Shown here: piece by piece, positions 2,624 to 29,843 of the stretch
Layout: every line of letters begins with the position of its first letter
Position numbering within the stretch: the stretch's first letter is position 1
Assembly: GCF_021054785.1 (NCBI RefSeq)
Contig: NZ_CP088239.1
Span: forward strand, 1,680,001-1,712,000
DNA length: 32,000 nucleotides
Direction of reading: 5' to 3'
Source: Tannockella kyphosi
GTDB taxonomy: Bacteria > Bacillota_I > Bacilli_A > Erysipelotrichales > Coprobacillaceae
Position numbers and translations under genes: made by a program
Notes under the pieces: generated by a model
Database searches by the model: none
Seen by the model: the letters and a program-made list of their open reading frames with translations, nothing else
Told to the model about the DNA's origin: nothing

Positions 2624-3505
2624 ATGAAAGAAAATTATCATACTCACACATTCCGCTGTGGCCATGCCACAGGGAGTGAAGAAGAAATGATTCTAGGTGC
2701 TATGGAAGGTGGTTTTACAACCTTAGGAATGTCTTGCCATATACCATTACCTAACTTCCGTAAGCATTTATTAAGAGGGGTACCTTATCTATCATCCTTT
2801 GATAATGCCAAAACATTATTCCGTTGGTTTTGTTTCAATGGATTAGGTACAAGAATGCCTTATCCCTCAAAAAAAGAACATTTATCAATTATCAAAGAAC
2901 TAAAAGAAAAATATAAAGATCAAATTACTATCTATCAAGGTTTTGAAGCAGAATACTTTGAAGAATATTTGGATTATTATCAAAGTTTATTAGATAATCA
3001 AGAAGTTGATTATCTAATATTAGGAAATCATTTTCATAAAATTTGTTGTGATGCTTGTTACAATGGTTTTGCTTTAGATAAAGAAGGAATTGAAAACTAT
3101 GGAAAAGATGCTTGTCTCGCAATGGAGACTGGTCTTTATAGTTATTTTTGTCATCCTGATTTATTTATGGCAGAAACAGTAGAATTCGATGAAACATGTG
3201 TTCAAATCACAAGAGATATTTGTACATGTGCTATTAAGAACAATATTCCATTAGAAATAAATGAAGGCGGCTTTAGAAGAGGTATTAAAAAGATCGGAAA
3301 TCAAACACGTCTTCCTTATCCTCATGATGAGTTTTGGAAGATTGTTGGAGAAATGGGGGCTCCTGTTGTTTTAGGTTTAGACAGTCATAACCCTAATGAA
3401 TTTTCAAAAAAAGAAGTAGCTGATTTAGAAAACTATGCTAAAAAGATGAACTTAACTGTCATCCCTTCTTTTGAGTTTAAAAAAGGAAAGAAGAAGGATT
3501 GTTAA
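2624..3505 (+). CDS. PHP-domain phosphatase, HisJ (histidinol-phosphatase) family, paralogue 1
   Basis: 293 aa. N-terminal YHTHTFRCGHA metal-binding motif, with later HPD and LGLDSH motifs typical of PHP/HisJ-family phosphoesterases. Confidence 0.8.
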   Translation: MKENYHTHTFRCGHATGSEEEMILGAMEGGFTTLGMSCHIPLPNFRKHLLRGVPYLSSFDNAKTLFRWFCFNGLGTRMPYPSKKEHLSIIKELKEKYKDQITIYQGFEAEYFEEYLDYYQSLLDNQEVDYLILGNHFHKICCDACYNGFALDKEGIENYGKDACLAMETGLYSYFCHPDLFMAETVEFDETCVQITRDICTCAIKNNIPLEINEGGFRRGIKKIGNQTRLPYPHDEFWKIVGEMGAPVVLGLDSHNPNEFSKKEVADLENYAKKMNLTVIPSFEFKKGKKKDC

Positions 3506-4387
3506 ATGAAGAAAAATTATCACACTCATACCTATCGTTGTGGTCATGCTAGTGGTAGTGAAGAAGACATGGTAGTACAAGCAATTGCATCCGGTTTAGA
3601 TACGATTGGTATTAGTTGCCATTCTCCACTACCTTATTTTAGACTCTTTATGATTCGCTCATTTGGATATGTTCGTTCTATCTTTGCTGCAAAATTCTTA
3701 ACAAAATGGATTGTAGCAGATGGATTTGGTAGTCGTTTACCTTATCGTACCAAAAATGAACATCTTCAAATTATAAAAGAATTAAAAGAAAAATATAAAG
3801 ATCAAATGACTATATATGCTGGTTTTGAAGCAGAATGGTTTGTTCAATATGCTAATTACTTTCAATCTTTATTAGATAACAAAGAAGTAGATTATTTAAT
3901 ATTAGGTCTTCATTATGATCGTTACAACTGCATGGATCGCTATTACTTACGTATTAGTGATGACGCTAGTTTGGTCCGTTATGGACAAAATGCATGTTAT
4001 GCCATGGATACAGGATTATTTAGTTATTTCTGTCATCCTGATTTATTTATGTCAACAAAAGCAGAGTTCAATGAAACATGTCAAAAAATCACAAGAGACA
4101 TTTGTCACAGTGCTTTAAAAAACAATGTCCCTCTAGAAGTGAATGCTGGTGGTTTCCGCCGTGGTTTAAAACAAATTGGAGATCATGAACGTTATCCATA
4201 CCCTCATGATGAATTTTGGAAGATTGTAAGTGAACTAGAAGTACCTGTTGTTTTAGGCTTAGATGCTCATGCACCAGAACAATTATGCAAAGAAGAATAT
4301 GATCAATTAGAAGCTTATGCTAAAAGATTAAATCTAAAAGTTATTGATACTTTTGAATTTAAAAAGGGCACTACGAAAAGTGTGTAA
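3506..4387 (+). CDS. PHP-domain phosphatase, HisJ family, paralogue 2 (tandem duplicate)
   Basis: 293 aa, colinear without gaps with the preceding gene and sharing the same motifs (YHTHTYRCGHA, FCHPDLFM, YPYPHDEFWKIV). The start ATG directly abuts the stop of paralogue 1 (TAAATG). Confidence 0.8.
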   Translation: MKKNYHTHTYRCGHASGSEEDMVVQAIASGLDTIGISCHSPLPYFRLFMIRSFGYVRSIFAAKFLTKWIVADGFGSRLPYRTKNEHLQIIKELKEKYKDQMTIYAGFEAEWFVQYANYFQSLLDNKEVDYLILGLHYDRYNCMDRYYLRISDDASLVRYGQNACYAMDTGLFSYFCHPDLFMSTKAEFNETCQKITRDICHSALKNNVPLEVNAGGFRRGLKQIGDHERYPYPHDEFWKIVSELEVPVVLGLDAHAPEQLCKEEYDQLEAYAKRLNLKVIDTFEFKKGTTKSV

Positions 4388-4410
4388 CAACCGTTACACA
4401 CTTCTTTATT
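4380..4410 (+). terminator. Rho-independent terminator of the PHP gene pair
   Basis: GTGTGTAAC-aacc-GTTACACAC (4380-4401) followed by TTCTTTATT. The stem overlaps the stop codon. Confidence 0.6.
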
Positions 4411-4492
4411 ATAATAAAGGATAAATTCATTTTGGTTACAATAAGACATTATCATAAGTTAATCAGTAATAGATATTTTGAAACTAATTTTA

Positions 4493-4521
4493 TTGACTCT
4501 TCGCCAAAAAATGGGTATACT
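4493..4521 (+). promoter_or_regulatory. Sigma-A type promoter of the candidate antisense sRNA (module copy 1)
   Basis: TTGACT (4493-4498), 17-nt spacer, TATACT (4516-4521). Confidence 0.55.
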
Positions 4522-4527
4522 ATTTAC

Positions 4528-4585
4528 GAGGTAAGTAGATATGCCAAAGAAAAAAGAGATCCGCAAGATCTCTTTTTCCGTTCTT
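4528..4585 (+). ncRNA. Candidate antitoxin-like antisense sRNA (module copy 1), ~55-60 nt
   Basis: Predicted start is ~7 nt after the -10. It ends at hairpin AAAAAGAGATC-cgcaa-GATCTCTTTTT (4551-4577). The RNA is convergent with, and overlaps the 3' end of, the peptide mRNA. Its 5' part carries TAAGTAGATAT, which is repeated at 4605-4615. Confidence 0.45.
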
Positions 4586-4625
4586 TCGAACTAATCGTTG
4601 GAGTTAAGTAGATATTAGGCGTTAG

Positions 4626-4679
4626 TTATCTTTTTAAGATAACCGCAATCAATACAAGAACTACAATAAGTAGTTCCAT
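4626..4679 (-). CDS. 17-aa hydrophobic peptide MELLIVVLVLIAVILKR (candidate type I toxin)
   Basis: Below the ORF-track size cutoff; found by reading the minus strand. AGGAGG (rc of 4687-4692), 7-nt spacer, ATG 4679, TAA 4626-4628. A diverged paralogue with the same layout lies at 11700-11756. Confidence 0.5.
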   Translation of the reverse strand: MELLIVVLVLIAVILKR

Positions 4680-4690
4680 AATCAATCCTC

Positions 4691-4732
4691 CTAATTCAAA
4701 CTCGACCTCCAACAAAATACATCTTTAGTCAT
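4691..4732 (-). CDS. 13-codon upstream ORF (MTKDVFCWRSSLN) whose TAG overlaps the SD of the peptide ORF
   Basis: GGAGG (rc 4741-4745), 8-nt spacer, ATG 4732. The stop TAG (4691-4693) is the first part of TAGGAGG. The same arrangement is seen at 11644-11685. Confidence 0.25.
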   Translation of the reverse strand: MTKDVFCWRSSLN

Positions 4733-4758
4733 ACTATTTTCCTCCATCGACTGATAAT

Positions 4759-4767
4759 ATTATAACA
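4759..4767 (-). promoter_or_regulatory. Extended -10 promoter (TGtTATAAT) for the peptide mRNA of module copy 1
   Basis: The reverse complement of 4759-4767 reads TGTTATAAT. There is no good -35. The same extended -10 string recurs in front of tnpA, the IS transposase and the surface-protein gene. Confidence 0.4.
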
Positions 4768-5176
4768 TATTCTCCTAATTAAAATAATCTTTTCAATGAT
4801 AATTCTGTAACTATATTTGAATGTGCTCAAGCTAGTATTTATTCATTTGATATATCCTGATTTATAACTACTTCTGCATGATTTATCGCATATTTCATAA
4901 CATCCCATAAAGACGGTATCATTTGACATATATGTGAAAATCTTGGAGTTCTCCCTTAGAAGCTTATGCCAAAAGATTGAATCTAAAAGTTATTGATACT
5001 TTTGAATTTAAAAAAGGCACTACGAAAAGTGTGTAACAACCGTTACACACTTCTCTATTATAATAAAGGATAAATTCATTTTGGTTACAATAAGACATTA
5101 TCATATTTGGAAGACAGAATAGATATTTTGAAACTAATTTTATTGACTCTTCGTCAAAAATGGGTATACTATTTAC

Positions 5177-5234
5177 GAGGTAAGTAGATATGCCAAAGAA
5201 AAAGAGATCTTCGGGGATCTCTTTTTCCGTTCTT
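5177..5234 (+). ncRNA. Candidate antisense sRNA, module copy 2
   Basis: TTGACT 5143-5148, 16-nt spacer, TATACT 5165-5170. Hairpin AAAAAGAGATC-ttcggg-GATCTCTTTTT (5199-5226); the stem is conserved and the loop differs from copy 1. Confidence 0.4.
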
Positions 5235-5274
5235 TCGAACTAATCGTTGGAGTTAAGTAGATATTAGGCGTTAG

Positions 5275-5327
5275 TTATCTTTTTAAGATAACCGCAATCA
5301 ATACAAGAACTACAATAAGTAGTTCCA
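5275..5327 (-). pseudogene. Peptide ORF of module copy 2 that has lost its start codon, SD, uORF and promoter to the IS junction
   Basis: Codons 2-17 and the stop are identical to copy 1. The position of the ATG now reads TTG, with IS terminal sequence and no SD upstream. Confidence 0.45.
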
Positions 5328-7235
5328 ATGGAGTCAACTTAAGGTAATACCTTAGTTGGCTCTTTTTTGATTTTACTCAATTATTTTCACTATGACTCCC
5401 CTAACTAAAAAAAGCGCATAATCCCCCTTATGAAATCTCGCTATTTTTTCAAATATTCTTATGTTATAATAATTTTAGTTCTTAACTACGGTTTTATCGT
5501 TTGATGATAACCATTCTTAGCTAATAGCTTAGGATGATTTCTTCCATCAAGCGTAAACCTGTATTTGATGGCACCGACTATAATTCGGCCCCATCTTTGA
5601 TTGTGTCTATCAGGGCGGGTAGGCACTTTTATTTTGTCCACTATTATTAAGATATTCTCCACTAGTTCTATTATCTTCTTCCTTCGCTGCTTGTACATGT
5701 TAAACACTAGTTGGTTGGATCGTACTAGAATAATTAATTGTGTAATATTAATGGCATACTGTTTCTCATTCTTTTGAAGTAGTACATTATTTATATGTTT
5801 ACGGGTTACACCAACAATATTAAAGAATAATATTTTTCCATAGATACAACATTTTGTTATATTCGATTTACAACTAATTGACCTTTCCCATTCCATTGTT
5901 GACTTTAATGTTTTATAACTCACTTCAACATCCCATCGTTTTGTATATAAATCAATAATTCCTTGAGTACTGAACGTCTCTTCGCTTAAATTGGTAAAGA
6001 ATAATAGTTCCTTTTCTATATCTTCTCCTTTTTTATTTTGATACACATATTTTGATTTTACTACACGGATTTTCATTATGGGATTTTCTTCTCTTAATTG
6101 TATAGCTTCTGAAGAGTAACGAAATCTTTTCACCCATTTTTTATCTACATTTACATGAATCCACTCATCATCACCGGTCATAGCAGCTACTTCTTTTTTA
6201 TAAAAGTATGATTTCCCTCGAATGCAGTAGTTATACTCAAAGGATTCTAACGTAGAAATGATTTCTACCGATCCATAGTACCTGTCCGCTAAGTAAATGA
6301 CTTTATTATTGTTTAGGATATTTTTAGTATGATATAAATGTCGAAAGCTTAAAGGAGTTTCAGAACATTTTGCTTGTTCCATAGAAAAATCCAGGAACAA
6401 ACCATTGGTAACATCATATAGTCCAGCAGATTTAGAAACGACAGTTTTAACGTCATATATTGTTTGTACCGTTCTAGACTGGGAGAAATTAAATTCATTG
6501 ATATTATGTAAACTATAAGGAATTTGTATTGTAGTCCCATCTTCAGCTAAAAGAATAAAACCTTTATGTTTTTTTACTAATGAACTTTGATAGAACAACT
6601 TCGCAAATTCCTTCATCAAATAATGAAATACATTCGGGTTTAGTTTATTTGCCGCTTGATATAAAGCTTGCTTACTAACACGATCCATCTTATTGTTCAT
6701 TAATGCATAGAAGTTAGTGAGCTCTGTATTTGTATTGGCAGAGCATCTTGATAAAAAGTAGTAGATAAGTTTTGAATGCGTTAAATTACGGTTTCTCGTA
6801 AAGTCCGTTGCATTTGTTCTGGAAAGCTCTCTTACAGTGGAAGACTGAATAATCTTATCGAAGTTTAAAAAAGTTTTGATAACTCTTTCTTAACTACGCG
6901 ATTCTTCATCATAAACTAAACGTGGTTTCTTTTTTGCGAAAGCAGCCTTTAAGTAAGGAACACTTTCACCATCAACTAGCCCAAAGTTGATAATAACACG
7001 ATGTTTAGGAGTATCACCATCACGATATGATTCTACTAAAGCACAATAATACTTAGATGTATCTCCTTTATTATTTTTTACAGCCCTTAAAAACATAAAA
7101 TCACCTCTTTCTTAACTACATTATAACATAAAATATATATATTATAAATATAAACTATAATATTCCTTAACTACAAGATGAATTTTATCGCAAAAAAGAG
7201 CCAACTAAGTTATTACCTTAAGTTGGCTCCATTGG
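5325..7235 (-). mobile_element. IS1634/IS4-like insertion sequence (~1.9 kb)
   Basis: 44-nt terminal inverted repeats with 2 mismatches (5325-5368 vs rc of 7192-7235). They enclose a DDE transposase reading frame. Each IR contains a 13-bp hairpin followed by T6 pointing inward. Confidence 0.75.
5486..7096 (-). pseudogene. IS1634-family (IS4-related DDE) transposase interrupted by one in-frame TAA
   Basis: ORFs 6890..7096 (68 aa, MFLRAVKNNKGD..YCALVESYRDG..) and 5486..6700 (404 aa) are in the same frame. My translation of 6701-6889 is open, so the only interruption is TAA at 6890-6892. Catalytic signature: LLAEDGT, YLADRYY and YTKRWDVEVSYKTLK, an exact Y-2-R-3-E-6-K motif. Confidence 0.7.
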
Positions 7236-7265
7236 TGTGTAACGAAAGTTACGCACTTTTTCATT

Positions 7266-9518
7266 TTATAATACTTTCTTTTTCTTACTTACTAAAAAAC
7301 CAAGCATAGAGGATGTCAACAAGATCATTAAGAACTGAACACCATTTACGTCTCCTGTTGACACTTCAGGTAATTCTGTATCTTGTCCCACTATGTCACT
7401 TATACTATCATCTGCAGTAATACAATTTAACGTATATTCAGAAAAACAATCAGTAGTGAATGTAATAGTTGTAGGATCATTATCCTCATCTTCTAATAAA
7501 GTTATTACGCCATTATGATTTCGTAATATAAAGAAGGTTGCATCCATACTTTGATACTCCTCCGGAATACTGATAGTGATAGTTATAGGAGTTGTCAAAC
7601 TTGTTACTTCACTCACATCATCTCCAAATGTTCTGATCACTGAAATTTCCATGATCATTGTTTGCCTTGCAATTAAACCTTGACTATTTAATGTACTATT
7701 ATAATTAGAAAGATACCCATCAAATAGAGCCTGTATTTCAGCTGATACGGCATCGGAATCAGTAATATCTACCTGTACAGAAACCTTCATTTCCAAATTC
7801 TTTGAAACATCAGAGTCCGTAAATAGTTCATTAAGTAATTGTTCTTTCGTTTCATCATCTACTGAAATATCCACACTACCTGTTGTAGTCATTTCCTGTT
7901 CCACTTTCTCTTCTATAACAAAGGTACATGCATCACTAGTAGCAGACAAGTAATTGTCTGTTGATTCTATTACCGCCTTAACATAGTAAGTTCCACCTTC
8001 TGCAGAAGTGATGTCTTCTACCTCTATTAAACAATCTTCATCTCTATAGTAAATATAAGAAACATCAGTTCCATCACTCGTAGTTTTGTAAGATGGTTCA
8101 TTCACAGTTGCACCAAACACCCAACCCTCTATTGTAACTTCAATGCTTGGAAGCTCTTTTAATGAATCAAGATAAACAGTACGTTTTTCCTCGTATTCAT
8201 ATTCCTCCAAGCCTACTCCGTCTGTTTTACTACTTGTGTCAAAGTTATTATTAATTTTGTAATAACAATCCTCAATTTTAATATCCGGATTGGATTCTGT
8301 AGCATTACCAACTATGCCTCCCAGTGAAGATACTCCTACAACATCCCCTTCACTGAAACAATCAGACAACGTAACTACTCCATTTGCAATACTCCCAGCA
8401 ATTCCACCAACTTCAGCACCATTTCCTGTGATATCTCCAGTGTTAAAGCATCCTGAAATTTCTAATGTTGTAGAGCTACTGTTAGTATATATCCTTCCAA
8501 TAATTCCTCCAACATATGAATTTCCTGTAGAAGTCGCAATTACACTAGCTGTATTGGTACAGTCAATTACACAACTTTCTGTATTTGTTGTTCCGTTCAA
8601 TTCCCCTATAACACCACCAACGTGTTGAGACCCCTTAACCGTAGCATTATTACTACAATTTTTCACTGTACAATTGTTGTAGATCATTCCTATCACACCT
8701 CCAACATATGCTGAAGTACTTGATACATCTCCATAATTACTGCAGCTTTCTACAACACTAGTGCTACAGTTTCCAACCATACCAACTATGCCTCCAACTC
8801 GAGCAGAAGTTCCTGCCACAGTTCCATAGTTAGTACAATTAGTAATTACAATATTATATGCATAACTACTATCCTCGTTCATGCCACCAAAATCATCATC
8901 ACTTAAATTCGTTTCTATCGCATATCCAACAATTCCACCAACCATTTCACTACCACTTACACTCCCTATAAAAGTACAGTTGTCGACAGTAACATCTGCT
9001 TCGCTTGCAACTAGATAAGCGACAATTCCGGCTGTACATACACTTCCGTAAATTTCTCCTGTAACATTCACGTTTTTAATGGTACCATCTGCTATACAAC
9101 CAAATAAACCTTGACCCCAAGAGCTACTATTTTTAATATAAAGGTTACTTATGTTGTAATTACCTCCGTCAAAAGTCCCTTCAAATGTTTTTACATTATA
9201 CCAATTACTAAGTGTTCCTATCGGAGTCCATTCAATATTATCTAAATCAATGTCATTTGTCAGAACAACCGTCTTCCCACTAAATGTTGTTCCTTCATTT
9301 ACTAATTTAGCCAAGCCAGCAAGTTCTTCGGCAGTATCAATTTCAAAAGTAGTACTTCCTGAATTACCATCATACCAGGTAGTATCTATATCACCTTCCC
9401 ACTTTACTGTTGTTACTGCATTACTTTTAATCACTGTTCCAGAAATCACACCAAACAATAAAGCAACTACTAAAAAGATTACCGTAATGTTTTCCATGTT
9501 TTTAATTTTCATACGCAT
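7266..9518 (-). CDS. Secreted surface protein with GLUG-type (..VGGIVG..) beta-helix repeats and a C-terminal sorting-signal-like anchor
   Basis: 750 aa. N-terminal signal peptide (..VVALLFGVISGTVIKSNA). More than 8 repeats of the form C.N.G.V.G...VGG(I/V)(I/V)G. C-terminus is LPEVSTGD + hydrophobic stretch + KKKKVL. GAGGGAGG lies 7 nt upstream of ATG 9518. Confidence 0.8.
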   Translation of the reverse strand: MRMKIKNMENITVIFLVVALLFGVISGTVIKSNAVTTVKWEGDIDTTWYDGNSGSTTFEIDTAEELAGLAKLVNEGTTFSGKTVVLTNDIDLDNIEWTPIGTLSNWYNVKTFEGTFDGGNYNISNLYIKNSSSWGQGLFGCIADGTIKNVNVTGEIYGSVCTAGIVAYLVASEADVTVDNCTFIGSVSGSEMVGGIVGYAIETNLSDDDFGGMNEDSSYAYNIVITNCTNYGTVAGTSARVGGIVGMVGNCSTSVVESCSNYGDVSSTSAYVGGVIGMIYNNCTVKNCSNNATVKGSQHVGGVIGELNGTTNTESCVIDCTNTASVIATSTGNSYVGGIIGRIYTNSSSTTLEISGCFNTGDITGNGAEVGGIAGSIANGVVTLSDCFSEGDVVGVSSLGGIVGNATESNPDIKIEDCYYKINNNFDTSSKTDGVGLEEYEYEEKRTVYLDSLKELPSIEVTIEGWVFGATVNEPSYKTTSDGTDVSYIYYRDEDCLIEVEDITSAEGGTYYVKAVIESTDNYLSATSDACTFVIEEKVEQEMTTTGSVDISVDDETKEQLLNELFTDSDVSKNLEMKVSVQVDITDSDAVSAEIQALFDGYLSNYNSTLNSQGLIARQTMIMEISVIRTFGDDVSEVTSLTTPITITISIPEEYQSMDATFFILRNHNGVITLLEDEDNDPTTITFTTDCFSEYTLNCITADDSISDIVGQDTELPEVSTGDVNGVQFLMILLTSSMLGFLVSKKKKVL

Positions 9519-9609
9519 TATAATACCTCCCTCAAAATAATGTCTAATACATTATAACATAATATTATAATGATAAACACGAACATTATTGAATATTGTT
9601 GTATAAAAA

Positions 9610-10878
9610 CTAATTTTTCAAACACCCTAAGGGAACCACAAAAACTCCGTCTTTTCTTTGATACGCTAAATTTCCACCTGTTAAAATCATCATAAAAGAT
9701 GGTTCTTTCATTTTATCAGTATTTATTTTATCTCGTATTTTAAGCAAGTGTTCTGCTGCTTCATCTAGCTTTGAACCAAGTTTCACTTCCACAGCAGCCC
9801 ATCTTCCATCATTTAGAGCAATAATTGCATCACATTCAAGTCCACTCGAATCCCTAAAATGGAAAATTTGTCCATCAATAGAATCAGCATACACTTTTAA
9901 ATCCCTTGAACATAATGCTTCAAATAAAAAACCAAAATAATTAAAATCTTCCAGTAGTCGTTCTGGTGTCATTGCCATAATTGCAGTAGCAATAGAAGGA
10001 TCCACAAACTGTCTTTTAGGAGAAGTACGTATCGCTGATTTTGAACGTAACGAAGGATTCCAAGCTGGTATATTATCTATTACAAATATTCGTTCTAGTG
10101 CCAACAAGTATTGGCTAATACTTTTTTCTGACAAACTATCACCAATGTCACCATCGGCTATATCATCATGCAATATCTTAATTGTTGCAAGTGTTGAAAT
10201 ATTTCTTGATAAAGAACGCATAAGAGCTCTAACCCTTGCAGGATTTTTTTGTATATCGTCAACTTCCGATACATCTTGATTTATAACAGCTTCAACATAA
10301 TCAATAGCGTTCCTTAAAGCAACTTTCTCTGGTTGACCTACAGATGCAGGCCATCCTCCTCTAACAATTGCTAAAGCAATCTGCTCAATAGTTAATTCAC
10401 TCATCGAATCAATATTTGTTTTCCCATTAAATAAATCAACAAGCTAAACTGTACCATTTGATTCCTTCGATTCAAAAAGACTCATTGTTCTCATTGTCAT
10501 ACGAGAAATTCTTCCCGTTCCAGTGTGCTCCACCACATTATCACGTGGTACTGCTGAACCTGTTAAAATGAACTGTCCTAATTCTCCACGCATATCAACT
10601 GCATATCTTACGGCATCCCATAAAACCGGTGCCATCTGCCACTCAGCCAAAAGTCTAGGAGTTTCTCCCTTTAATAACAATGACGGTTTCACATCAGCCA
10701 CTTGTTGATAAGATGTTCTATTATCCAGATTTTGCATAAATAATTGACTATTAGAGTTTTCCATTGCTGTTCTTGTTTTTCCACACCATTTGGCACCCTC
10801 AATTAAAACAGCACCAGTGGCTTCAAGACGTTCTTTTAATATTTTATCTGCTATTCGTGGTATATAATCTCTTGTCAT
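9610..10878 (-). pseudogene. AAA+ ATPase with C-terminal DUF4143 (PD-(D/E)xK-like) domain, interrupted by one in-frame TAG
   Basis: ORF 10444..10878 has the P-loop (IEGAKWCGKTRTA). ORF 9610..10404 has the DUF4143-type C-terminus (..ECDAIIALNDGRWAAVEVKLG). The two are in the same frame, the 13 codons between them are open, and the only break is TAG 10444-10446. Confidence 0.75.
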
Positions 10879-10997
10879 CTATATCACCCGCCTTTGTTAA
10901 AAACAACTATACACCAACTTTTGAAATTATCAATGTTTTACTCCCGAAATTATTATTACTTTAAAAAATAAAAAATCAATCACAAAATACTACTTTG

Positions 10998-11262
10998 ATA
11001 CTCATTTTATTGACGCTTCGTAAAAAACGAGTATACTATTTACGAGGTAAGCAGATATGGCAAAGAAAAAGAGATCTTGGGGATCTCTTTTTTCGTTCTT
11101 TCGAACTAATCGTTGGAGTTAAGTAGATATTAGGCGTTAGTTATCTTTTTAAGATAACCGCAATCAATACAAGAACTACACTAAGTAGTTTCTCTCTAAT
11201 TCAAAATTGGTCTCTAGTATTATGGCTTATCCACCTGATTAAATGAGTATTTTCAATGATGT
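10998..11262. repeat. Degenerate third copy of the sRNA/peptide module
   Basis: Aligns with 4485-4800. The sRNA promoter, direct repeats, terminator and peptide codons 3-17 are recognisable. The SD+ATG region is deleted and about 46 nt of leader/promoter are missing. Confidence 0.8.
11044..11100 (+). ncRNA. Candidate antisense sRNA, module copy 3 (orphan)
   Basis: TTGACG 11010-11015, 16-nt spacer, TATACT 11032-11037. Hairpin AAAAAGAGATC-ttggg-GATCTCTTTTT (11066-11092). Confidence 0.35.
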
Positions 11263-11643
11263 TTTTTTAATTCCAACCAAAAATATCCCCTTTATACGTA
11301 AGATATCTTTTTCATACAATTACTATTATTTTTACCATTATCAAGAAGTATATCTACTATAAATGCTAACATAAAGATAACCTCTCTTTTTCCTTAACAG
11401 CGTACATGTTAAAGCGTTGTTAACCCCTTAACCCAAAAGGCTTGTCCAATACAATTGGATCATACCTTTTTAAATATAGAGGACAATATTATGAAATCAT
11501 CTATTTCATAATATCATACTTTTTCAAATCGTGCCAACCTCAGTTTTGATTCCTGCAAAGAGCGAGTTTCGCTCCGAAGTTGTTCGAGTTTTGTCTATTT
11601 TTGTAGTATAATAGATATGTTATTGAATACGGAGGACATGTTT

Positions 11644-11685
11644 ATGAATAAATTAAATTTGTCTCAATTAGGAGGTAATCTTTAG
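11644..11685 (+). CDS. 13-codon upstream ORF (MNKLNLSQLGGNL) whose TAG overlaps the SD of the downstream peptide ORF
   Basis: GGAGG 11631-11635, 8-nt spacer, ATG 11644. TAG 11683-11685 runs into GGGGAGG. Confidence 0.25.
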   Translation: MNKLNLSQLGGNL

Positions 11686-11699
11686 GGGAGGAAAGAAAA

Positions 11700-11756
11700 G
11701 TGAACGATGTAATTATCGTACTTATTCTAATAGTGTATATCCTAAAACACTGTTAG
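11700..11756 (+). CDS. 18-aa hydrophobic peptide (M)NDVIIVLILIVYILKHC (candidate type I toxin, family-2 paralogue)
   Basis: GGGGAGG 11685-11691, 8-nt spacer, GTG 11700, TAG 11754-11756. The composition pattern matches MELLIVVLVLIAVILKR: an acidic residue near the N-terminus, an aliphatic core, then ILK plus a basic residue. Confidence 0.45.
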   Translation: MNDVIIVLILIVYILKHC

Positions 11757-11794
11757 GTTTCCTAATCTAACTTTTTGTCCTCCATTTGAGATAA

Positions 11795-11847
11795 CAACGA
11801 AAAAAAGAGAGATGCTAGTCTCTCTTTTTTCATCTAACTTTTTGTCC
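11795..11847 (-). ncRNA. Candidate antisense sRNA of the family-2 module (~50 nt)
   Basis: Extended -10 TGATATAAT (rc of 11854-11862). The predicted 5' end GGACAAAAAGTTAGAT (rc of 11832-11847) is perfectly complementary to 11765-11780 in the peptide mRNA 3' UTR. The RNA ends at the shared terminator. Confidence 0.4.
11801..11830. terminator. Bidirectional rho-independent terminator of the family-2 module
   Basis: AAAAAAGAGAGA-tgctag-TCTCTCTTTTTT, with an A-tract on one side and a T-tract on the other. Confidence 0.6.
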
Positions 11848-12012
11848 AAAATCATTATATCATACTTTCTCAAATCGTACTAGGTTATTTTTGACAGGCT
11901 AATAGCATCAAATCTTCTAGCGATATAATCTTTAATTCCATTATATTCATTATAACAAAAGGCACCCAGCTTTAAGTAACAAAAGTGAGAACACTTTTAT
12001 TAGAAAAACTGG

Positions 12013-12498
12013 TTACTTTATGTTAGCATTTATATCTACCGCTTTTTTGCTTTTCATATAAGATGCATCCGTTTTAAGATTTTTCCTATTCTCTACCAGC
12101 AGTTCTTCATAATATTTAGGGTCATCATATATTTTTTGAAGTATTTTTGAATACTGTTTCGTTGGAACATCACCATCACAGTATCTAGAGAATGTTTGCT
12201 CAGCCCAACCCAACAATAATGACAAAGATCGTTTCCCTATCGCATATTTTTTAGGTATTTTTGAAATTGTTTCTAAAGAAACAATACCATGTTTTTCTCT
12301 GTACTCATCATATAACATCTTCAAATTATGATCCATTATTTCTTTAACATAAATTTCAGTATTGCAATCAATACAACGTGCCACTTTACCCAAATAACTA
12401 AATTTTTCACCTTTTAAAGTTCCTTCTATTTGAGCATTAACAATAGTGAATTCTACATCATCTCTACATTCTTCACAATAACCTAGCAGGAAGCCCAC
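12013..12498 (-). CDS. Zn-ribbon + HTH regulator (MqsA/YgiT-like architecture), with its 5' end displaced by the IS200/IS605 insertion
   Basis: CEEC..(34 aa)..CIDC zinc-ribbon spacing, followed by an HTH-like segment (KRSLSLLLGWAEQTFSRYCDGDVPTKQ). The annotated GTG start lies inside the IS left-end hairpin. A plausible original start with SD lies at 14729 on the other side of the IS. Confidence 0.55.
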   Translation of the reverse strand: MGFLLGYCEECRDDVEFTIVNAQIEGTLKGEKFSYLGKVARCIDCNTEIYVKEIMDHNLKMLYDEYREKHGIVSLETISKIPKKYAIGKRSLSLLLGWAEQTFSRYCDGDVPTKQYSKILQKIYDDPKYYEELLVENRKNLKTDASYMKSKKAVDINANIK

Positions 12499-12513
12499 TA
12501 CTTTAGGGGTGGG
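12494..12513 (+). repeat. IS200/IS605 left-end imperfect hairpin
   Basis: CCCACT.C-ttta-G.GGGTGGG. It shares CCCACTACTT..G.GGTGGGAG with the right end. Confidence 0.7.
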
Positions 12514-12575
12514 AGGAATGCGTAAGATGTGTATAAAAAGTACAAATCATACATAATTTATGTTATAATAAGTAT

Positions 12576-12974
12576 ATGAAAGAATATAGAAAAACAAAAA
12601 CAACAACCTCGTTAATTAATTATCATTTTATCTTTTGTCCAAGGTATCGTAGAAAAATATTTTTAATTCCAAATGTAGAAGAAAGGCTTAAAATCATAGT
12701 GGAAGAAACTTGCAAGGAATTAGAAATTGAAATTATTGCTATGGAATGTGATAAGGATCATATTCATTTGTTTATAAACGCATTACCAAAATATAGCCCT
12801 AGCGAAATTATGCAAAAAATAAAAAGGAAAAGTGGGTTGATATTAAGAAGTGAATTTTCAGAGTTGAATCAGATGAAAAGTTTGTGGACAAGAAGCTATT
12901 TTGTTTCAACTGCCGGTGTTGTTAGTAGCGAAACAATAAAGAGATATGTAGAAAGCCAGAGAAAAAGATATTAA
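12576..12974 (+). CDS. tnpA: IS200/IS605 family Y1 (HUH) transposase TnpA
   Basis: 132 aa. YHFIFCPRYRRKIF, HUH motif DHIHLFI and catalytic-Tyr region TRSYFVSTAG. Confidence 0.9.
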   Translation: MKEYRKTKTTTSLINYHFIFCPRYRRKIFLIPNVEERLKIIVEETCKELEIEIIAMECDKDHIHLFINALPKYSPSEIMQKIKRKSGLILRSEFSELNQMKSLWTRSYFVSTAGVVSSETIKRYVESQRKRY

Positions 12975-13002
12975 ATATCGAAATCAAGAAGGGAGAAACT
13001 TC

Positions 13003-14499
13003 ATGAGTAATTTTTGTATAACAATTCCATTAAAAACAGAAACCTATCAAGAACATATATTAGAAAAACGTTTTGAAATTGGTAGAAAAATATATAATTC
13101 TTTAATTGTTATCACTCAAAAACGATATAGAGAAATGACAAAAACAAAAGAATATAAATACATTATGAAACAATATAAGCGAATTCATGAAGGACATCCT
13201 AAAGCTGGTGTAACAAAGAAAGACCTAGCTAACCGATTAAAAGAAATGCAAAGAGAATATCGTTTATCCGAATATGATTTTCATAAAGATGTAAAAGAAT
13301 TACAACATTGTTTTCGTGAAAATATTGATTCAAACACGTCTCAAAAGATTGCTACGAATTTATGGAAAGCTTATAGCAAAGTAATGTTTAGTGATGGAAA
13401 AGAAATTCATTTTAAAAAGTATGGAGAATTCACTTCGTTAGAAGGAAAATCAAATACAAGTGGAATTCGTCTCGTAAATGAAACACTTATTTGGAATGGT
13501 CTTATTATTCCTGTTATCATTAATCATTCTAATAGTTATGAAAATGAATGTTTTCAAAACCCTCATTATAAAATCTGTTATAATCGAACACTTCAAAAAG
13601 AAATTAGAGGAAAGTATAAATACTATCTACAAGTAGTTTTTAAAGGAACTCCTCCTGTAAAATACAATCCAACGACTGGTGAAGTAAAGAATCCTAAAAG
13701 AGATGGTGTTGTAGGTATTGACTTAGGTACGCAAACGATTGCCTATTGCTCTAACAAAGAAGTAGGATTGATTGAGTTAGCTGATAAAGTACCAAATCTA
13801 GAAAAGAAAAAGCGAATCATTTCTAGAAAAATGGATCGTAGTAGACGAGCTATGAATCCTAATAACTATAACGAAGATGGAACTACTAAAACAGGGGCTA
13901 GAAAATGGAAGAACTCCAATCGCTATCTTCGATTAAGAAGCGAACTAAGAGAGCTTAGTAGAAAACAAGCAGCTATTCGAAAGTTACAACATGAGACCTT
14001 AGCAAATCATCTTTTAACATTAGGAACGACCATTTATGTAGAAACAATGCATTATAAAGGATTGCAAAAACGAGCAAAGAAAACAACGGTTAATGAAAAG
14101 ACAGGTAAGTTCAATCGTAAAAAACGTTTCGGCAAGTCTTTAGGAGAAAAAGCTCCTGCTATGTTTGTAGAAATTTTGAATAGAAAGCTAAACTACATAG
14201 ATAAAGAAGTTTTAAAAGTAAACAACTATACAACCAAAGCAAGTCAATACAACCATGTTAATCAAACATACAAGAAGAAAAAACTATCTCAAAGATGGAA
14301 TAAAATAGAACACAACAACGAAGTGATAATAGTACAAAGAGATTTATATAGTTCTTATTTATTAATGAATATGAACGAAGATTTAAAAACAATGAATCAA
14401 GAAAAATGTGAAATGAATTTTGAAAGATTTTTAATCAAACATAACCAAGAAGTAGAAAGATTAAAAGGAAAGAAAAACCTTTCTAGTATTGGCATTTAA
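13003..14499 (+). CDS. tnpB: TnpB-family (OrfB_IS605, RuvC-like) RNA-guided-nuclease homologue, 498 aa, lacking zinc-finger cysteines
   Basis: N-terminus fits the TnpB pattern (..IPLKTETYQEHILEKRFEIGRKIYNSL). RuvC motifs are VGIDLGTQT, IYVETMHYKGL and VQRDLYSSYLL. GGGAG lies upstream of the ATG. Confidence 0.85.
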   Translation: MSNFCITIPLKTETYQEHILEKRFEIGRKIYNSLIVITQKRYREMTKTKEYKYIMKQYKRIHEGHPKAGVTKKDLANRLKEMQREYRLSEYDFHKDVKELQHCFRENIDSNTSQKIATNLWKAYSKVMFSDGKEIHFKKYGEFTSLEGKSNTSGIRLVNETLIWNGLIIPVIINHSNSYENECFQNPHYKICYNRTLQKEIRGKYKYYLQVVFKGTPPVKYNPTTGEVKNPKRDGVVGIDLGTQTIAYCSNKEVGLIELADKVPNLEKKKRIISRKMDRSRRAMNPNNYNEDGTTKTGARKWKNSNRYLRLRSELRELSRKQAAIRKLQHETLANHLLTLGTTIYVETMHYKGLQKRAKKTTVNEKTGKFNRKKRFGKSLGEKAPAMFVEILNRKLNYIDKEVLKVNNYTTKASQYNHVNQTYKKKKLSQRWNKIEHNNEVIIVQRDLYSSYLLMNMNEDLKTMNQEKCEMNFERFLIKHNQEVERLKGKKNLSSIGI

Positions 14500-14708
14500 A
14501 AAGCATTAAAAAATATTAAAACAAACGTCTTGAAACGGGCGTTATACTATCGTTAATTTGTTCAATAGAACGAATGGATAGTGAAATTCTTAATGAAAAT
14601 AATTAGGATTCTCTACATTGTAAACAATAATTATTGTTTTATTTTTGTAGTCAAAGAAGGTTATTTAGTAGTTAAGAACCCCACTACTTCAGTGGTGGGA
14701 GTTTCAGA
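14440..14708 (+). ncRNA. Predicted omega/reRNA region of the TnpB element (3' end of tnpB through RE)
   Basis: Assigned by position only, by analogy with characterised IS200/IS605 TnpB systems. Contains palindrome AAACAATAATTATTGTTT (14621-14638) and the RE hairpin. Boundaries are not determinable from sequence alone. Confidence 0.35.
14680..14699 (+). repeat. IS200/IS605 right-end hairpin
   Basis: CCCACTAC-ttca-GTGGTGGG, an 8-bp stem including one G-T pair. Confidence 0.7.
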
Positions 14709-14940
14709 AAATACTTTCCTCTCACTCATAACTATATCTCCGTCCATTTATATTATTTAAATTAATAATCTATATTCCTTATCTACTTTTATCCAAAATT
14801 ATTATGTAATTTTGTTTTTAATATAGGTTTATTGAATCATCCCTATTTGATAATATAATACTCTCTCCTATTTTGTTTGTAAATAATTAATGCATCTGTT
14901 TTATGTTAACAAAAAAGAATATCTCTTATTTTACTAAGCA

Positions 14941-14982
14941 ATAACATAAAAACGACTTTGGTTAAACCAAAATCGTTTTTAT
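14941..14982 (-). terminator. Rho-independent terminator of the V-ATPase operon
   Basis: On the minus strand: AAAAACGATTTTGGTT-ta-AACCAAAGTCGTTTTT then ATGTTAT. It begins 8 nt after the subunit D stop. Confidence 0.7.
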
Positions 14983-14989
14983 ATTATTG

Positions 14990-28224: not shown

Positions 28225-28837
28225 CACCTTCTCCTATTTCATAAGCACCACAACTCATTGATAAATAGTTTCCATTCACAGTATAAGTCCAACCAGAACG
28301 CCCACCATAATCAAACTCATTTAATCCACCTATTCCTTTTACATAAATAGAAGTACCTATTCCAGATGTCTTTAACTCCATTGATTGAGAAGTAGTATAT
28401 TCTAATAATACTTCATAAACTGTACTAGATTGTGCTACTTGAATTGTACCACTAGACATTGTTTCATTAACCCCATAAATAATAATAGAAACTTGGCTAA
28501 TCGCTTCTTGTTGTGAAGTTGAAGAACTTGAAGTTTCTTCTTCGAACTCTACTTCCTCTTGTTCAGTCTCTGTTTCAACTTGTTCAGTCTCTGCTTGCTG
28601 CTCAACTGAGTCTTCTTGTATTTCTTCTTGATCAGTTACAACTATCTCTTGATCATCTTCTACAATTTGTTCATCAATATTTTCTTCTTCATTTTCCACT
28701 ACTTCTTCTTGCTCGTAGATAACTTCTTCTTTTGTGTCTAGAGATTGGTAAATACCAATCCCTAGAATAACAAGGAAACTACATACTACAAAAGCAATGG
28801 TTATTTTTGTTGTATTATTAAATTGATTTTTTTTCAT
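28190..28837 (-). CDS. Membrane-anchored DUF4430 (transcobalamin C-terminal/beta-domain-like) protein with an acidic linker
   Basis: 215 aa. N-terminal TM anchor, a ~75-aa E/Q/D-rich linker, and a C-terminal ~95 aa with the DUF4430 pattern (..GWTYTVNG..GDVIEWIY). Confidence 0.7.
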   Translation of the reverse strand: MKKNQFNNTTKITIAFVVCSFLVILGIGIYQSLDTKEEVIYEQEEVVENEEENIDEQIVEDDQEIVVTDQEEIQEDSVEQQAETEQVETETEQEEVEFEEETSSSSTSQQEAISQVSIIIYGVNETMSSGTIQVAQSSTVYEVLLEYTTSQSMELKTSGIGTSIYVKGIGGLNEFDYGGRSGWTYTVNGNYLSMSCGAYEIGEGDVIEWIYANYE

Positions 28838-29825
28838 AAGACATTACGAATAATGCAAGAAGTGCTGTTGTTAGATAAAAAGTAATCATAGAAATATCAC
28901 TTGTTTGAACTATGTTAGAATCCATACTCTCTTCCACTTCAGGAACTAGTTCTAAAATCGCTTGATATGAAAGTTCTAATGCTTCATAGACACTTCCATT
29001 TTCATAAGTACCAATTGTTAATACTGCTTGTTTTGTCGCCCAGTTATTATCTTCTCCAGCTTCATAGTACCAAAAGCTTCCATCTTCATTTTGGAAAGTT
29101 AATAGTGCTTGATAAGCATCTTCATAATCTTGTTTAGCAGCTATTAAACCTAATAATACAGTAGCTTGTGTATTTGCATTTGCACTACCTGGATAATATA
29201 CACCATCGTATTCATATCCTAAAGGAATATAATAACTATCTTCCTGTACTGTTTCTAAATATGCTACAACATTTGTGATATTTTCACTATATTTACTTGC
29301 ATCTACTAACGCTAATGTTTCTAATACCCAACCTGTCACATCAACATCTTCGCCATATGCGGAACTAAATGAACCATTTTCATTTTGTAATGAAGCTAAA
29401 TAATCTGCTGCAATACTCAATTTTTCAGAATTAATTACGTATAATGCATTTACACAAATATACTGCCAACTACCATAACTAGTATCTCCTGTTAATGTTA
29501 CAGCACCATTTTCTTGTACTGCATCTTCTAACAATGTAACATAGTCAACATCATTATAATTATTTGGATTTTCTCCTTTTGCTACTAAAGCTAAAATACT
29601 TTGGGCAATATTAGATGCATAATCTGTACTTAATAAAGCATCAATTTCCATCTCACTACAATCCACACCCAAACTAGCAAGTGTTACCATTTCATCTAAA
29701 CCACTCACTGTTGTTACGTTTTGGTAATACGTACTTGCTGCTTGATAACTATCTCCTGTTTCTAAAGCTTGAATCTGACATACACTTACTAGTAATGCCA
29801 TTACTGCAATCATCATTTTTTTCAT
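28818..29825 (-). CDS. Exported alpha/alpha-toroid (prenyltransferase/terpene-cyclase-repeat) protein with a C-terminal TM anchor
   Basis: Signal peptide (MKKMMIAVMALLVSVCQIQA). Repeated Q(N)E(N/D)GSF motifs (LQNENGSFSSAYG, FQNEDGSFWYY). C-terminal hydrophobic helix. I prefer ATG 29825 (AAGGA upstream) over 29843, which abuts the riboswitch terminator T-tract. Confidence 0.65.
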   Translation of the reverse strand: MKKMMIAVMALLVSVCQIQALETGDSYQAASTYYQNVTTVSGLDEMVTLASLGVDCSEMEIDALLSTDYASNIAQSILALVAKGENPNNYNDVDYVTLLEDAVQENGAVTLTGDTSYGSWQYICVNALYVINSEKLSIAADYLASLQNENGSFSSAYGEDVDVTGWVLETLALVDASKYSENITNVVAYLETVQEDSYYIPLGYEYDGVYYPGSANANTQATVLLGLIAAKQDYEDAYQALLTFQNEDGSFWYYEAGEDNNWATKQAVLTIGTYENGSVYEALELSYQAILELVPEVEESMDSNIVQTSDISMITFYLTTALLALFVMSYEKKSI

Positions 29826-29843
29826 TTTCTTTTTTCCTTTCAT

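Follow-up and report, generated by a model that had tools for sequence, protein, structure and literature searches.

Does a short intergenic stretch of the Tannockella kyphosi genome encode a membrane toxin together with the antisense RNA that silences it? T. kyphosi is a fish-gut bacterium (Erysipelotrichales, Coprobacillaceae). The element in question is a module that spans approximately 270 bases and lies within a 32-kb stretch of its DNA, referred to here as the window, with a GC content of approximately 30%. Three proteins encoded in the window match WP_249028936, WP_249028940 and WP_249028941 exactly. The module is likely to be a chromosomal toxin and antisense-RNA pair of a type I-like kind, with less confidence in each mechanistic step than in the pair itself. 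As far as sequence analysis reaches, this reading is supported; the module appears to be real and is probably functional, and a toxic action is what we infer for its peptide. In the best reading, it departs from the par/Fst systems in three respects: a toxin of 17–18 amino acids (aa) that lacks the PXXXG motif, a leader open reading frame (ORF) positioned as mok is, and a small RNA (sRNA) whose target lies in the 3′ untranslated region (3′UTR).

Anatomy of the module and its predicted antisense RNA

The first-pass annotation of this DNA had listed sequence features on both strands of the module, and a check against the sequence placed all of them where they had been reported. On the plus strand, a putative −10 element (TATAAT, 11607–11612) would start the toxin mRNA near 11619. 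It has neither an acceptable −35 element nor a TG extension, and it was not listed by the promoter scan. Thus, the toxin promoter is weak or uncertain. This is followed by a Shine–Dalgarno (SD) sequence, GGAGG (11631–11635), located 8 nt before the ATG at 11644 of a leader ORF of 13 codons plus TAG (11644–11685; MNKLNLSQLGGNL). The TAG (11683–11685) abuts a second SD sequence, GGGGAGG (11685–11691), from which an 8-nt spacer leads to the GTG at 11700. This codon opens an ORF of 18 codons (11700–11756, with the stop at 11754–11756) for the putative membrane toxin, (M)NDVIIVLILIVYILKHC.

The 18-codon peptide carries an acidic residue near the N-terminus, an aliphatic core of 12–13 residues and a basic C-terminus, and 71% of it is hydrophobic. 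When the window was examined for intergenic ORFs of 10–40 codons with a strong SD sequence and at least 60% hydrophobic residues, only two were present, and both are module ORFs. The predicted toxin mRNA is approximately 213 nt long (about 11619–11831). This corresponds to the short mRNA (150–400 nt) with a small hydrophobic peptide that is expected of a type I locus, with the peptide itself under the 20–60 aa usually quoted for type I toxins (PMC8594479).

The 3′UTR contains the feature that ties the two strands together, a 16-nt direct repeat. The first copy of ATCTAACTTTTTGTCC resides in the 3′UTR (11765–11780, plus strand) and is the predicted target of the 5′ tail of the sRNA. The second copy is exact (11832–11847, plus strand), and its complement forms the 5′ tail of the minus-strand sRNA. 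No other exact direct repeat of 16 nt or more has its copies 20–120 nt apart in the window; the expected number of such repeats, as the mean of first-order Markov random sequences, is 0.02. Between the copies lies an intrinsic terminator with a 13-bp stem (11800–11831), which mRNA and sRNA share. An A-run and a T-run flank the hairpin, so that it has the form of a terminator in both directions. The terminator scan flagged the minus strand, and the plus-strand reading was taken from the folds and the sequence.

The sRNA promoter is an extended −10 element on the minus strand, TGATATAAT (reverse complement of 11854–11862). It is also without a −35 element and rests on this extended −10. The predicted antisense sRNA is approximately 53 nt long (11795–11848, minus strand), its ends set by the positions of the promoter and the terminator, and it consists of a single-stranded tail, GGACAAAAAGUUAGAU, followed by the terminator hairpin. 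It ends 39 nt downstream of the ORF stop at 11756. As a consequence of the 16-nt repeat, the predicted tail is perfectly complementary to the 3′UTR. The first-pass annotation had proposed this match to 11765–11780, and it was recovered as a duplex of 16 bp with a predicted energy of −23.4 kcal/mol. The two predicted RNAs are, in addition, fully complementary across the terminator, with an overlap of approximately 43 nt. The predicted promoter, the terminator and the tail match together provide the antisense RNA gene with base-pairing potential that is expected of a type I system.

A second source of antisense RNA is plausible. On one side, the module is flanked by a convergent gene for an MqsA-family antitoxin (mqsA-like; 12013–12498, minus strand). 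Since the hairpin of the module is the first strong minus-strand terminator downstream of this gene, antisense RNA could also arise from it by read-through.

Family 1 paralogues and their decay

The same window contains three copies of a related module, termed family 1, at 4475–4800, 5124–5324 and 10991–11270. Copy 1 (4475–4800) is intact, with its toxin on the minus strand. Its toxin ORF encodes MELLIVVLVLIAVILKR (4626–4679, minus strand) behind the SD sequence AGGAGG. Its leader ORF (4691–4732, minus strand; MTKDVFCWRSSLN) also has 13 codons, with GGAGG 8 nt before the ATG and a TAG that overlaps the toxin SD. A bidirectional terminator (4551–4577) is enclosed by the two copies of an 11-nt repeat, TAAGTAGATAT (4532 and 4605). 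Convergent to the toxin is a strong sRNA promoter, TTGACT-17-TATACT, with 10/12 matches.

The first-pass annotation had regarded the two families as homologues with a common architecture, and both parts of this claim held. A full-length alignment gives z = 6.6 over shuffles, and the order of elements is identical: a weak promoter, an SD sequence and a 13-codon leader, a hydrophobic ORF of 17 or 18 codons, the repeat, the bidirectional terminator, the repeat again, and a strong convergent promoter. Judging from these alignments, the module under study (family 2) and the family 1 copies are diverged paralogues. According to the promoter scan, strong promoters belong to the sRNAs and weak ones to the toxins, the balance to be expected if the antitoxin is made in excess.

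The pattern of divergence differs between the two ORFs. The toxin peptides align without gaps and are identical at 9/17 positions (start codon counted). The differences between the toxin ORFs fall on codon positions 1, 2 and 3 in the ratio 10:4:9, a coding-type constraint such as would arise if a hydrophobic coding sequence is preserved, whereas those between the leader ORFs are evenly spread (8:9:7). The leaders have only their length, SD sequence and stop position in common, and the leader peptide is not conserved. We conclude that the sequence of the toxin peptide is under selection, and for the leader at most the act of translation.

The repeats have changed in a coordinated manner. On the sRNA strand, family 1 carries TAAGTAGATAT twice and family 2 carries GGACAAAAAGTTAGAT twice. 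The one-base indel and the extensions that separate these sequences occur in both copies of each family, which points to selection for RNA–RNA complementarity. Pairing of the sRNA tail with its cognate 3′UTR is predicted at −23.4 kcal/mol in family 2 and −16.6 kcal/mol in family 1. Pairing across families is weaker (−9.0 and −12.6 kcal/mol, the latter falling elsewhere). The matched repeats and the cognate pairing are the strongest internal evidence for a selected complementarity between tail and 3′UTR, and the predicted energies indicate that the two families would not cross-react.

The remaining family 1 copies are decayed, and the pattern of this decay speaks for a toxin and antisense pair, as does the location of the modules in an island with insertion sequence (IS) elements and an MqsA-family antitoxin gene. 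Copy 2 (5124–5324) is interrupted exactly at the toxin start codon by an IS element (5325–7235). The missing half was not found past the right end of this element, so a rearrangement or deletion accompanied the insertion. The element has 45-nt terminal inverted repeats that are 96% complementary and encodes a DDE_Tnp_1 transposase of 404 aa (5486–6700, minus strand). Copy 3 (10991–11270) has lost the leader together with the toxin SD and ATG, and it has an in-frame stop and one repeat mismatch. It retains the sRNA promoter and terminator and may be an orphan antitoxin.

Traces of a further copy are found close by. A stretch at 11506–11532 (minus strand) is 93% identical to the sRNA promoter region at 11852–11878, and the scan reads it as TTGGCA-18-TATTAT with a TG extension (10/12 matches). 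It is fused to 11478–11500, which resembles the start of the leader ORF of the module. The interval 11292–11540 (minus strand) may, on these resemblances, be an internally deleted third module. Transcription from this promoter would cross a 26-codon ORF with an SD sequence (11292–11372; MLAFIVDILLDNGKNNSNCMKKISYV), for which no Pfam match was found, and continue into the decayed copy 3.

It has also been considered that family 1 is a miniature inverted-repeat transposable element. This was rejected, as the copies belong to segmental duplications in which the 3′ end of a PHP-domain gene is included, and they have no terminal inverted repeats. The genes concerned are two tandem paralogues (histidinol-phosphatase-like; 2624–4387 and 4307–5105) with approximately 75% nucleotide identity. 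A 649-bp segmental duplication carries the 3′ end of the second PHP gene along with one family 1 module, and short-read assemblies of related strains break exactly at this duplication.

Predicted fold, related systems and rival explanations

The folds of the two predicted mRNAs are much more stable than those of shuffled sequences (−61.7 kcal/mol, z = −5.5; −63.4 kcal/mol, z = −6.5). Their folds have an identical topology built from different sequences. An RNAalifold run on a MAFFT alignment of both mRNAs was uninformative, as the alignment ignores structure, and the helices of the separate folds were compared instead. In both families, a closing helix joins the distal half of the leader ORF to the 3′UTR segment just before the terminator: UUGUUGGAG with CUCCAACGA in family 1, and UUGUCUCAA plus GGAGG with CCUCC...UUGAGAUAA (11779–11794, plus strand) in family 2. 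The toxin SD pairs with the 3′UTR just past the stop codon, through AUUAGG/CCUAAU in family 1 and AGGAAA/UUUCCU in family 2, where the anti-SD UUUCCU (11758–11763, plus strand) forms this pairing in the minimum free energy (MFE) structure. Both pairings involve the 3′UTR, and in the predicted fold the toxin ORF is therefore enclosed by the long-range helix. The family 2 toxin ORF has two internal hairpins, one near the start codon and one across the stop codon. Family 1 has an extra helix between the toxin SD/spacer (GAUUGAU) and an internal ORF segment (AUUGAUU).

The first-pass annotation had asked whether such a fold sequesters the SD sequences. The toxin SD is indeed mostly paired, with an unpaired probability of 0.31–0.39. 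It had also noted that GGAGGACA (11631–11638), at the leader SD, could pair with the 3′UTR. The exact reverse complementarity to TGTCCTCC (11776–11783) was found, and the helix GGAGGACA/UGUCCUCC is present in the centroid but not in the MFE structure. In the latter, CCUCC pairs with an internal GGAGG (11671–11675) instead of the leader SD, so that there are two competing predicted pairings. The suggestion that the fold competes with the sRNA holds in the predictions: in both families, the sRNA is directed at the central part of the 3′ arm of the long-range helix, and this is the helix that holds the toxin SD.

The effect of sRNA binding was approached through constrained folds, in which the target site was blocked and SD accessibility compared. 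Blocking lowers the accessibility of the leader SD from 0.87 to 0.36 in family 1 and from 0.22 to 0.04 in family 2. Over the same comparison, the accessibility of the toxin SD rises, a result considered below.

The proposed mechanism is as follows. Once made, the peptide would damage the membrane. Toxin translation would need ribosomes on the leader to open the helix, a coupling of the kind known from mok/hok. As in par of pAD1, contact between the abundant sRNA and the mRNA would be made by the repeat and by the complementary loops of the terminators. RNase III would then cut the duplex so formed, beside or across the terminator, or this duplex would lock the mRNA, and no toxin would be made for as long as the sRNA is replenished.

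It has been postulated further, as a tentative possibility rather than an expectation, that the two families define a new type I family that combines par-like geometry with a hok/mok-like leader gate, a distant shut-off by the sRNA and a toxin of 17–18 aa. The geometry comprises convergent transcription, a shared terminator and a direct repeat that provides trans-like complementarity. In this scheme, translation of the 13-codon leader would have to unzip the 5′–3′ closing helix to expose the toxin start. The sRNA would bind the 3′ arm of the helix, and the freed 5′ arm would fold onto the leader SD and so shut off expression.

Several points weigh against a type I pair. The toxin promoter is without a −35 element. 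The peptides, at 17–18 aa, are shorter than the 20–60 aa range of type I toxins (PMC8594479), and a simple helix formed by the hydrophobic core, as read from the sequence, would not reach across a bilayer. The strand targeted by the sRNA is also the one that sequesters the toxin SD, and blocking this strand raises toxin-SD accessibility from 0.18 to 0.32 in family 1 and from 0.31 to 0.57 in family 2. In these models, repression is unreadable from the structure and would need leader coupling or RNA decay. A nested-structure co-fold favours a 37-bp terminator duplex and makes no use of the repeat, with a gain of approximately −30 kcal/mol. Finally, searches of plasmids, phages, viral contigs, JGI metagenomes and the surroundings of related genes revealed no homologue beyond T. 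kyphosi, and the support from conservation therefore rests on paralogues in one genome and one near-identical strain.

The 37-bp duplex would be a substrate for RNase III. Simple occlusion of the toxin ribosome binding site (RBS) by the sRNA is ruled out by the geometry. Repression could instead come about in one of two ways, or by both together: the duplex may trigger decay, as with RatA and SR4, or the leader may be shut off from a distance, which would block the toxin ORF coupled to it.

The module can be placed among known systems. Every type I system so far described from Gram-positive bacteria has its overlap at the 3′ ends (PMC4147584). The layout of the module is that of the Gram-positive type I systems (PMC4147584, PMC8594479) and is closest to par/Fst. 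The par locus (Fst/RNA I–RNA II, of Enterococcus faecalis pAD1 and its chromosomal homologues) has convergent promoters and a shared bidirectional intrinsic terminator, as are also found here. Studies of par describe direct repeats together with the bidirectional terminator; the oppositely transcribed DNA repeats provide a second complementarity outside the overlap, the toxin SD is sequestered intramolecularly, and the toxin is small and hydrophobic with charged ends (PMC7472228). These traits recur in the module. In par, the mRNA copies of the repeats DRa and DRb lie over the toxin start and flank its translation initiation region; the module has a single repeat, with the mRNA copy placed past the stop codon and ahead of the terminator. 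The best duplex of tail and mRNA is at 11765–11780, not at the leader or toxin translation initiation region. Furthermore, the peptide has 17–18 aa compared with approximately 33 aa in par, and it is preceded by the 13-codon leader ORF. MNDVIIVLILIVYILKHC and MELLIVVLVLIAVILKR contain neither P nor G and hence no PXXXG motif, which in Fst is part of the transmembrane domain.

The leader is reminiscent of hok/mok/sok of plasmid R1, in which an ORF lies upstream of the toxin ORF; here too, opening of the toxin start could depend on translation of the leader. In the full-length hok mRNA, pairing of the 3′ end over a long range likewise maintains a closed state (PMC4147584). The module differs in its Gram-positive-type layout with a convergent sRNA at the 3′ end, and this sRNA is complementary to the 3′UTR and terminator, not to the leader translation initiation region. 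The leader ends before the toxin ORF without overlap, and there is no apparent need for 3′ processing. Ibs/Sib of Escherichia coli shares the very short, almost purely aliphatic peptide, with Ibs peptides of 18–19 aa. The multicopy, repeat-like chromosomal loci are a further likeness (PMC4147584). Sib spans the whole ibs ORF and RBS, whereas the overlap here is limited to the terminator and leaves the ORF uncovered.

The txpA/RatA and bsrG/SR4 systems of Bacillus subtilis resemble the module in that their antitoxins act on the toxin mRNA at its 3′ end and have no complementarity to the RBS. Toxins of the TxpA/BsrG type have 38–59 aa, and those systems have neither a direct repeat nor a leader ORF. 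Their overlaps measure approximately 75–120 nt and, according to T1TAdb, reach into the ORF (PMC8594479), compared with approximately 43 nt around the terminator here. Repression by RatA and SR4 operates through RNase III-dependent decay, and SR4 also causes a distant refolding that hides the RBS (PMC4147584); the constrained folds of the module predict a comparable distant effect on the leader SD. In SprA1/SprA1AS of Staphylococcus aureus, the cis antisense RNA also overlaps only the 3′ end of the mRNA and acts through a non-overlapping 5′ domain (PMC8594479). This domain targets the toxin RBS and start codon, whereas the tail described here targets the 3′UTR. PepA1 is an Fst-type peptide of 30 aa.

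An anatomy of this kind is that of an antisense-regulated small ORF and is in itself silent on toxicity. The product could be a small membrane peptide that is not a toxin, for example a membrane-protein modulator or a stress-response peptide, with the sRNA tuning its level. A hydrophobic core of 12–13 residues would suit such a role, as would the stability of the intact chromosomal copy in two strains. This explanation is nonetheless considered unlikely. The element is multicopy, the start of the ORF has been selectively lost while the sRNA gene was kept, the locus resides in an IS-rich accessory island with another antitoxin gene adjoining, and the predicted fold sequesters the translation initiation region elaborately. 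Taken together, these are hallmarks of type I toxin loci and not of housekeeping small proteins.

Given the likeness to par, it is also conceivable that the module is no separate family but a very diverged, N-terminally shortened member of the Fst/RNA I–RNA II family, with which it shares the convergent promoters, bidirectional terminator and direct repeats of par (PMC7472228). The Rfam family RF02848 (RefB11, ‘Enterococcus sRNA B11’) is the top sub-threshold match on the toxin strand of all three family 1 copies (4574–4720, 5223–5352 and 11089–11235, minus strand), with full-model matches of 18.8–23.4 bits (E = 0.007 in a 241-nt search). Since the RefB11 consensus encodes an Fst-type peptide, MHEIISLVIAPLFVGLVILLVDHWLDD, this ‘sRNA’ family is apparently a toxin mRNA of the par type. 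The codon preceding APLFVG is matched in frame by the family 1 ATG. However, these scores fall far short of the gathering score (54) and have no significance for a search of the whole window, and the family 2 module gives no RefB11 match at E ≤ 10. The peptides lack PXXXG, which is essential in Fst (PMC7472228), the repeat is in the 3′UTR, away from the translation initiation region, and searches gave no match to an antitoxin RNA family or in Pfam or NCBIfam. Membership of the Fst family is thus improbable.

It is very hard to credit that the locus is a relic or incidental, with the hairpin serving the mqsA-like gene as terminator, the repeat a duplication scar (e.g., the target-site duplication of a small insertion) and the ORF spurious: the minus-strand terminator of the module is the first strong one downstream of that gene and the region is rich in rearrangements and decayed copies, but family 1 shows the same layout beside unrelated genes, built on a repeat of another sequence, chance would not be expected to produce an exact repeat of 16 nt, the ORF combines coding-type substitutions with a perfect and ideally spaced SD, and the fold z-scores are about −5.5 to −6.5. 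A leader-peptide attenuator was rejected, as the terminator and a convergent promoter lie 3′ of the ORF and no gene follows on the same strand.

Accessory island, distribution and meaning

The setting of the modules becomes apparent from a related organism, in which a single PHP gene and the V-ATPase D gene converge with 65 nt between them. The V-ATPase D proteins of this organism and of the window are 93% identical and the PHP proteins 57% identical. In the window, the same interval measures 10.6 kb (4388–14989), which is missing from the related organism. A gap of 65 nt there against 10.6 kb here places all four modules in an accessory island, which also contains two IS elements, a surface protein gene, a split ATPase gene that is probably a pseudogene and an orphan MqsA-type antitoxin gene. 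The first-pass annotation had turned to orthologous loci as a check on the module. The module is absent from the relative, but only in that the whole 10.6-kb island is missing there, and not through ORF decay. An absence of this type, as opposed to decay of an ORF within a conserved locus, is usual for accessory toxin–antitoxin loci.

On the side opposite the mqsA-like gene, the module is flanked by an AAA_14/DUF4143 ATPase gene (9610–10878, minus strand) that is split between two frames (144 and 264 aa). It is probably a frameshifted pseudogene, although NCBI annotates a protein for its N-terminal part. The mqsA-like gene has no recognisable adjacent gene for a partner toxin. The partner may have been displaced, since an IS200/IS605 tnpA begins 78 nt upstream. 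Homologues of this antitoxin elsewhere occur in varied contexts, some of them phage-like. The IS200/IS605-type pair (12576–14499) adjoins the mqsA-like gene and comprises TnpA (132 aa), with a clear Y1_Tnp match, and a very diverged TnpB-like protein (498 aa), for which OrfB_IS605 gives 17 bits (E = 0.006), under the Pfam threshold. A V-type ATPase operon lies near this pair. The surface protein of the island has 750 aa, a GLUG motif and an LPxTG-like C-terminus.

The module is also present in a second strain (Logan metagenome assembly, L085), which is 98.9% identical over 11161–12855 and has three single-nucleotide polymorphisms (SNPs) in the module. The first (11676 T>C) is synonymous in the leader and converts a U–G pair of the closing helix to C–G; the second (11679 T>A) results in N12K of the leader and lies in a loop; the third (11831 C>T) lengthens the T-run. 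The toxin ORF, both repeats, the SD sequences and the stems are unchanged, which carries little weight at a background divergence of 1%. In this strain, the in-frame stop of family 1 copy 3 is reverted (11181 C>A).

Searches for homologues covered several collections. A blastn search in ‘distant’ mode with both modules found nothing in plasmids and phages. Three patterns applied to viral contigs (the terminator; the peptide core; SD, start, core and ILK) gave only chance or out-of-frame matches. In JGI metagenomes, a pattern of SD, start, eight hydrophobic codons, ILK and stop retrieved 18 loci, none with the terminator/repeat architecture and several of them small genes in phage-like operons. 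In a genome collection, the pattern of terminator plus CGTTSTT, which the two families have in common, gave 31 matches, all ordinary terminators that follow unrelated genes and lack a repeat or small ORF, a result that does not establish absence from GTDB genomes. The neighbourhoods of MqsA-like and PHP gene homologues yielded no module by nhmmer and small-ORF scans. The peptides had no match in Pfam or NCBIfam, also when extended upstream to 25 aa. At the gathering threshold, Rfam recognised in the window only a cobalamin riboswitch elsewhere (RF00174; 29903–30015, minus strand; 35.3 bits), upstream of the genes at 28818–29843.

One JGI metagenome contig, Ga0206803_1214 (L059, 64% GC), contains an intergenic ORF of 17 codons (1089–1142; MQTLVIVLLLIAVILKR) whose product is identical to the family 1 peptide at 12/17 positions, including the unconstrained A12, V13 and R17. 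A CCUCC upstream of its GGAGG SD is the predicted pairing partner of the latter, and a preceding ORF of 9 codons ends just before the SD. The contig stops 130 nt past the ORF. This peptide could be a distant high-GC relative or a case of convergence.

To our knowledge, type I toxin–antitoxin loci are rarely annotated and almost unknown in Erysipelotrichia, a class common in gut communities. The practical importance of the present case is modest, as it would add another family of a well-known kind, so far in one species. Interest would rise if the combined scheme of par-like geometry, mok-like leader and 3′UTR target operates. If the reading as a toxin and antisense pair is true, the lower size limit of Gram-positive type I toxins would fall to 17–18 residues, the shortest known there, and it would have to be explained how an aliphatic helix of that length harms the membrane. 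The module would also be a natural case of par-like direct-repeat control shifted from the start codon to the 3′UTR, with a leader ORF in addition. Finally, a single genome would hold two diverged, apparently orthogonal mRNA–sRNA pairs, which would be useful for studies of how cross-talk is avoided and usable as compact RNA control parts.

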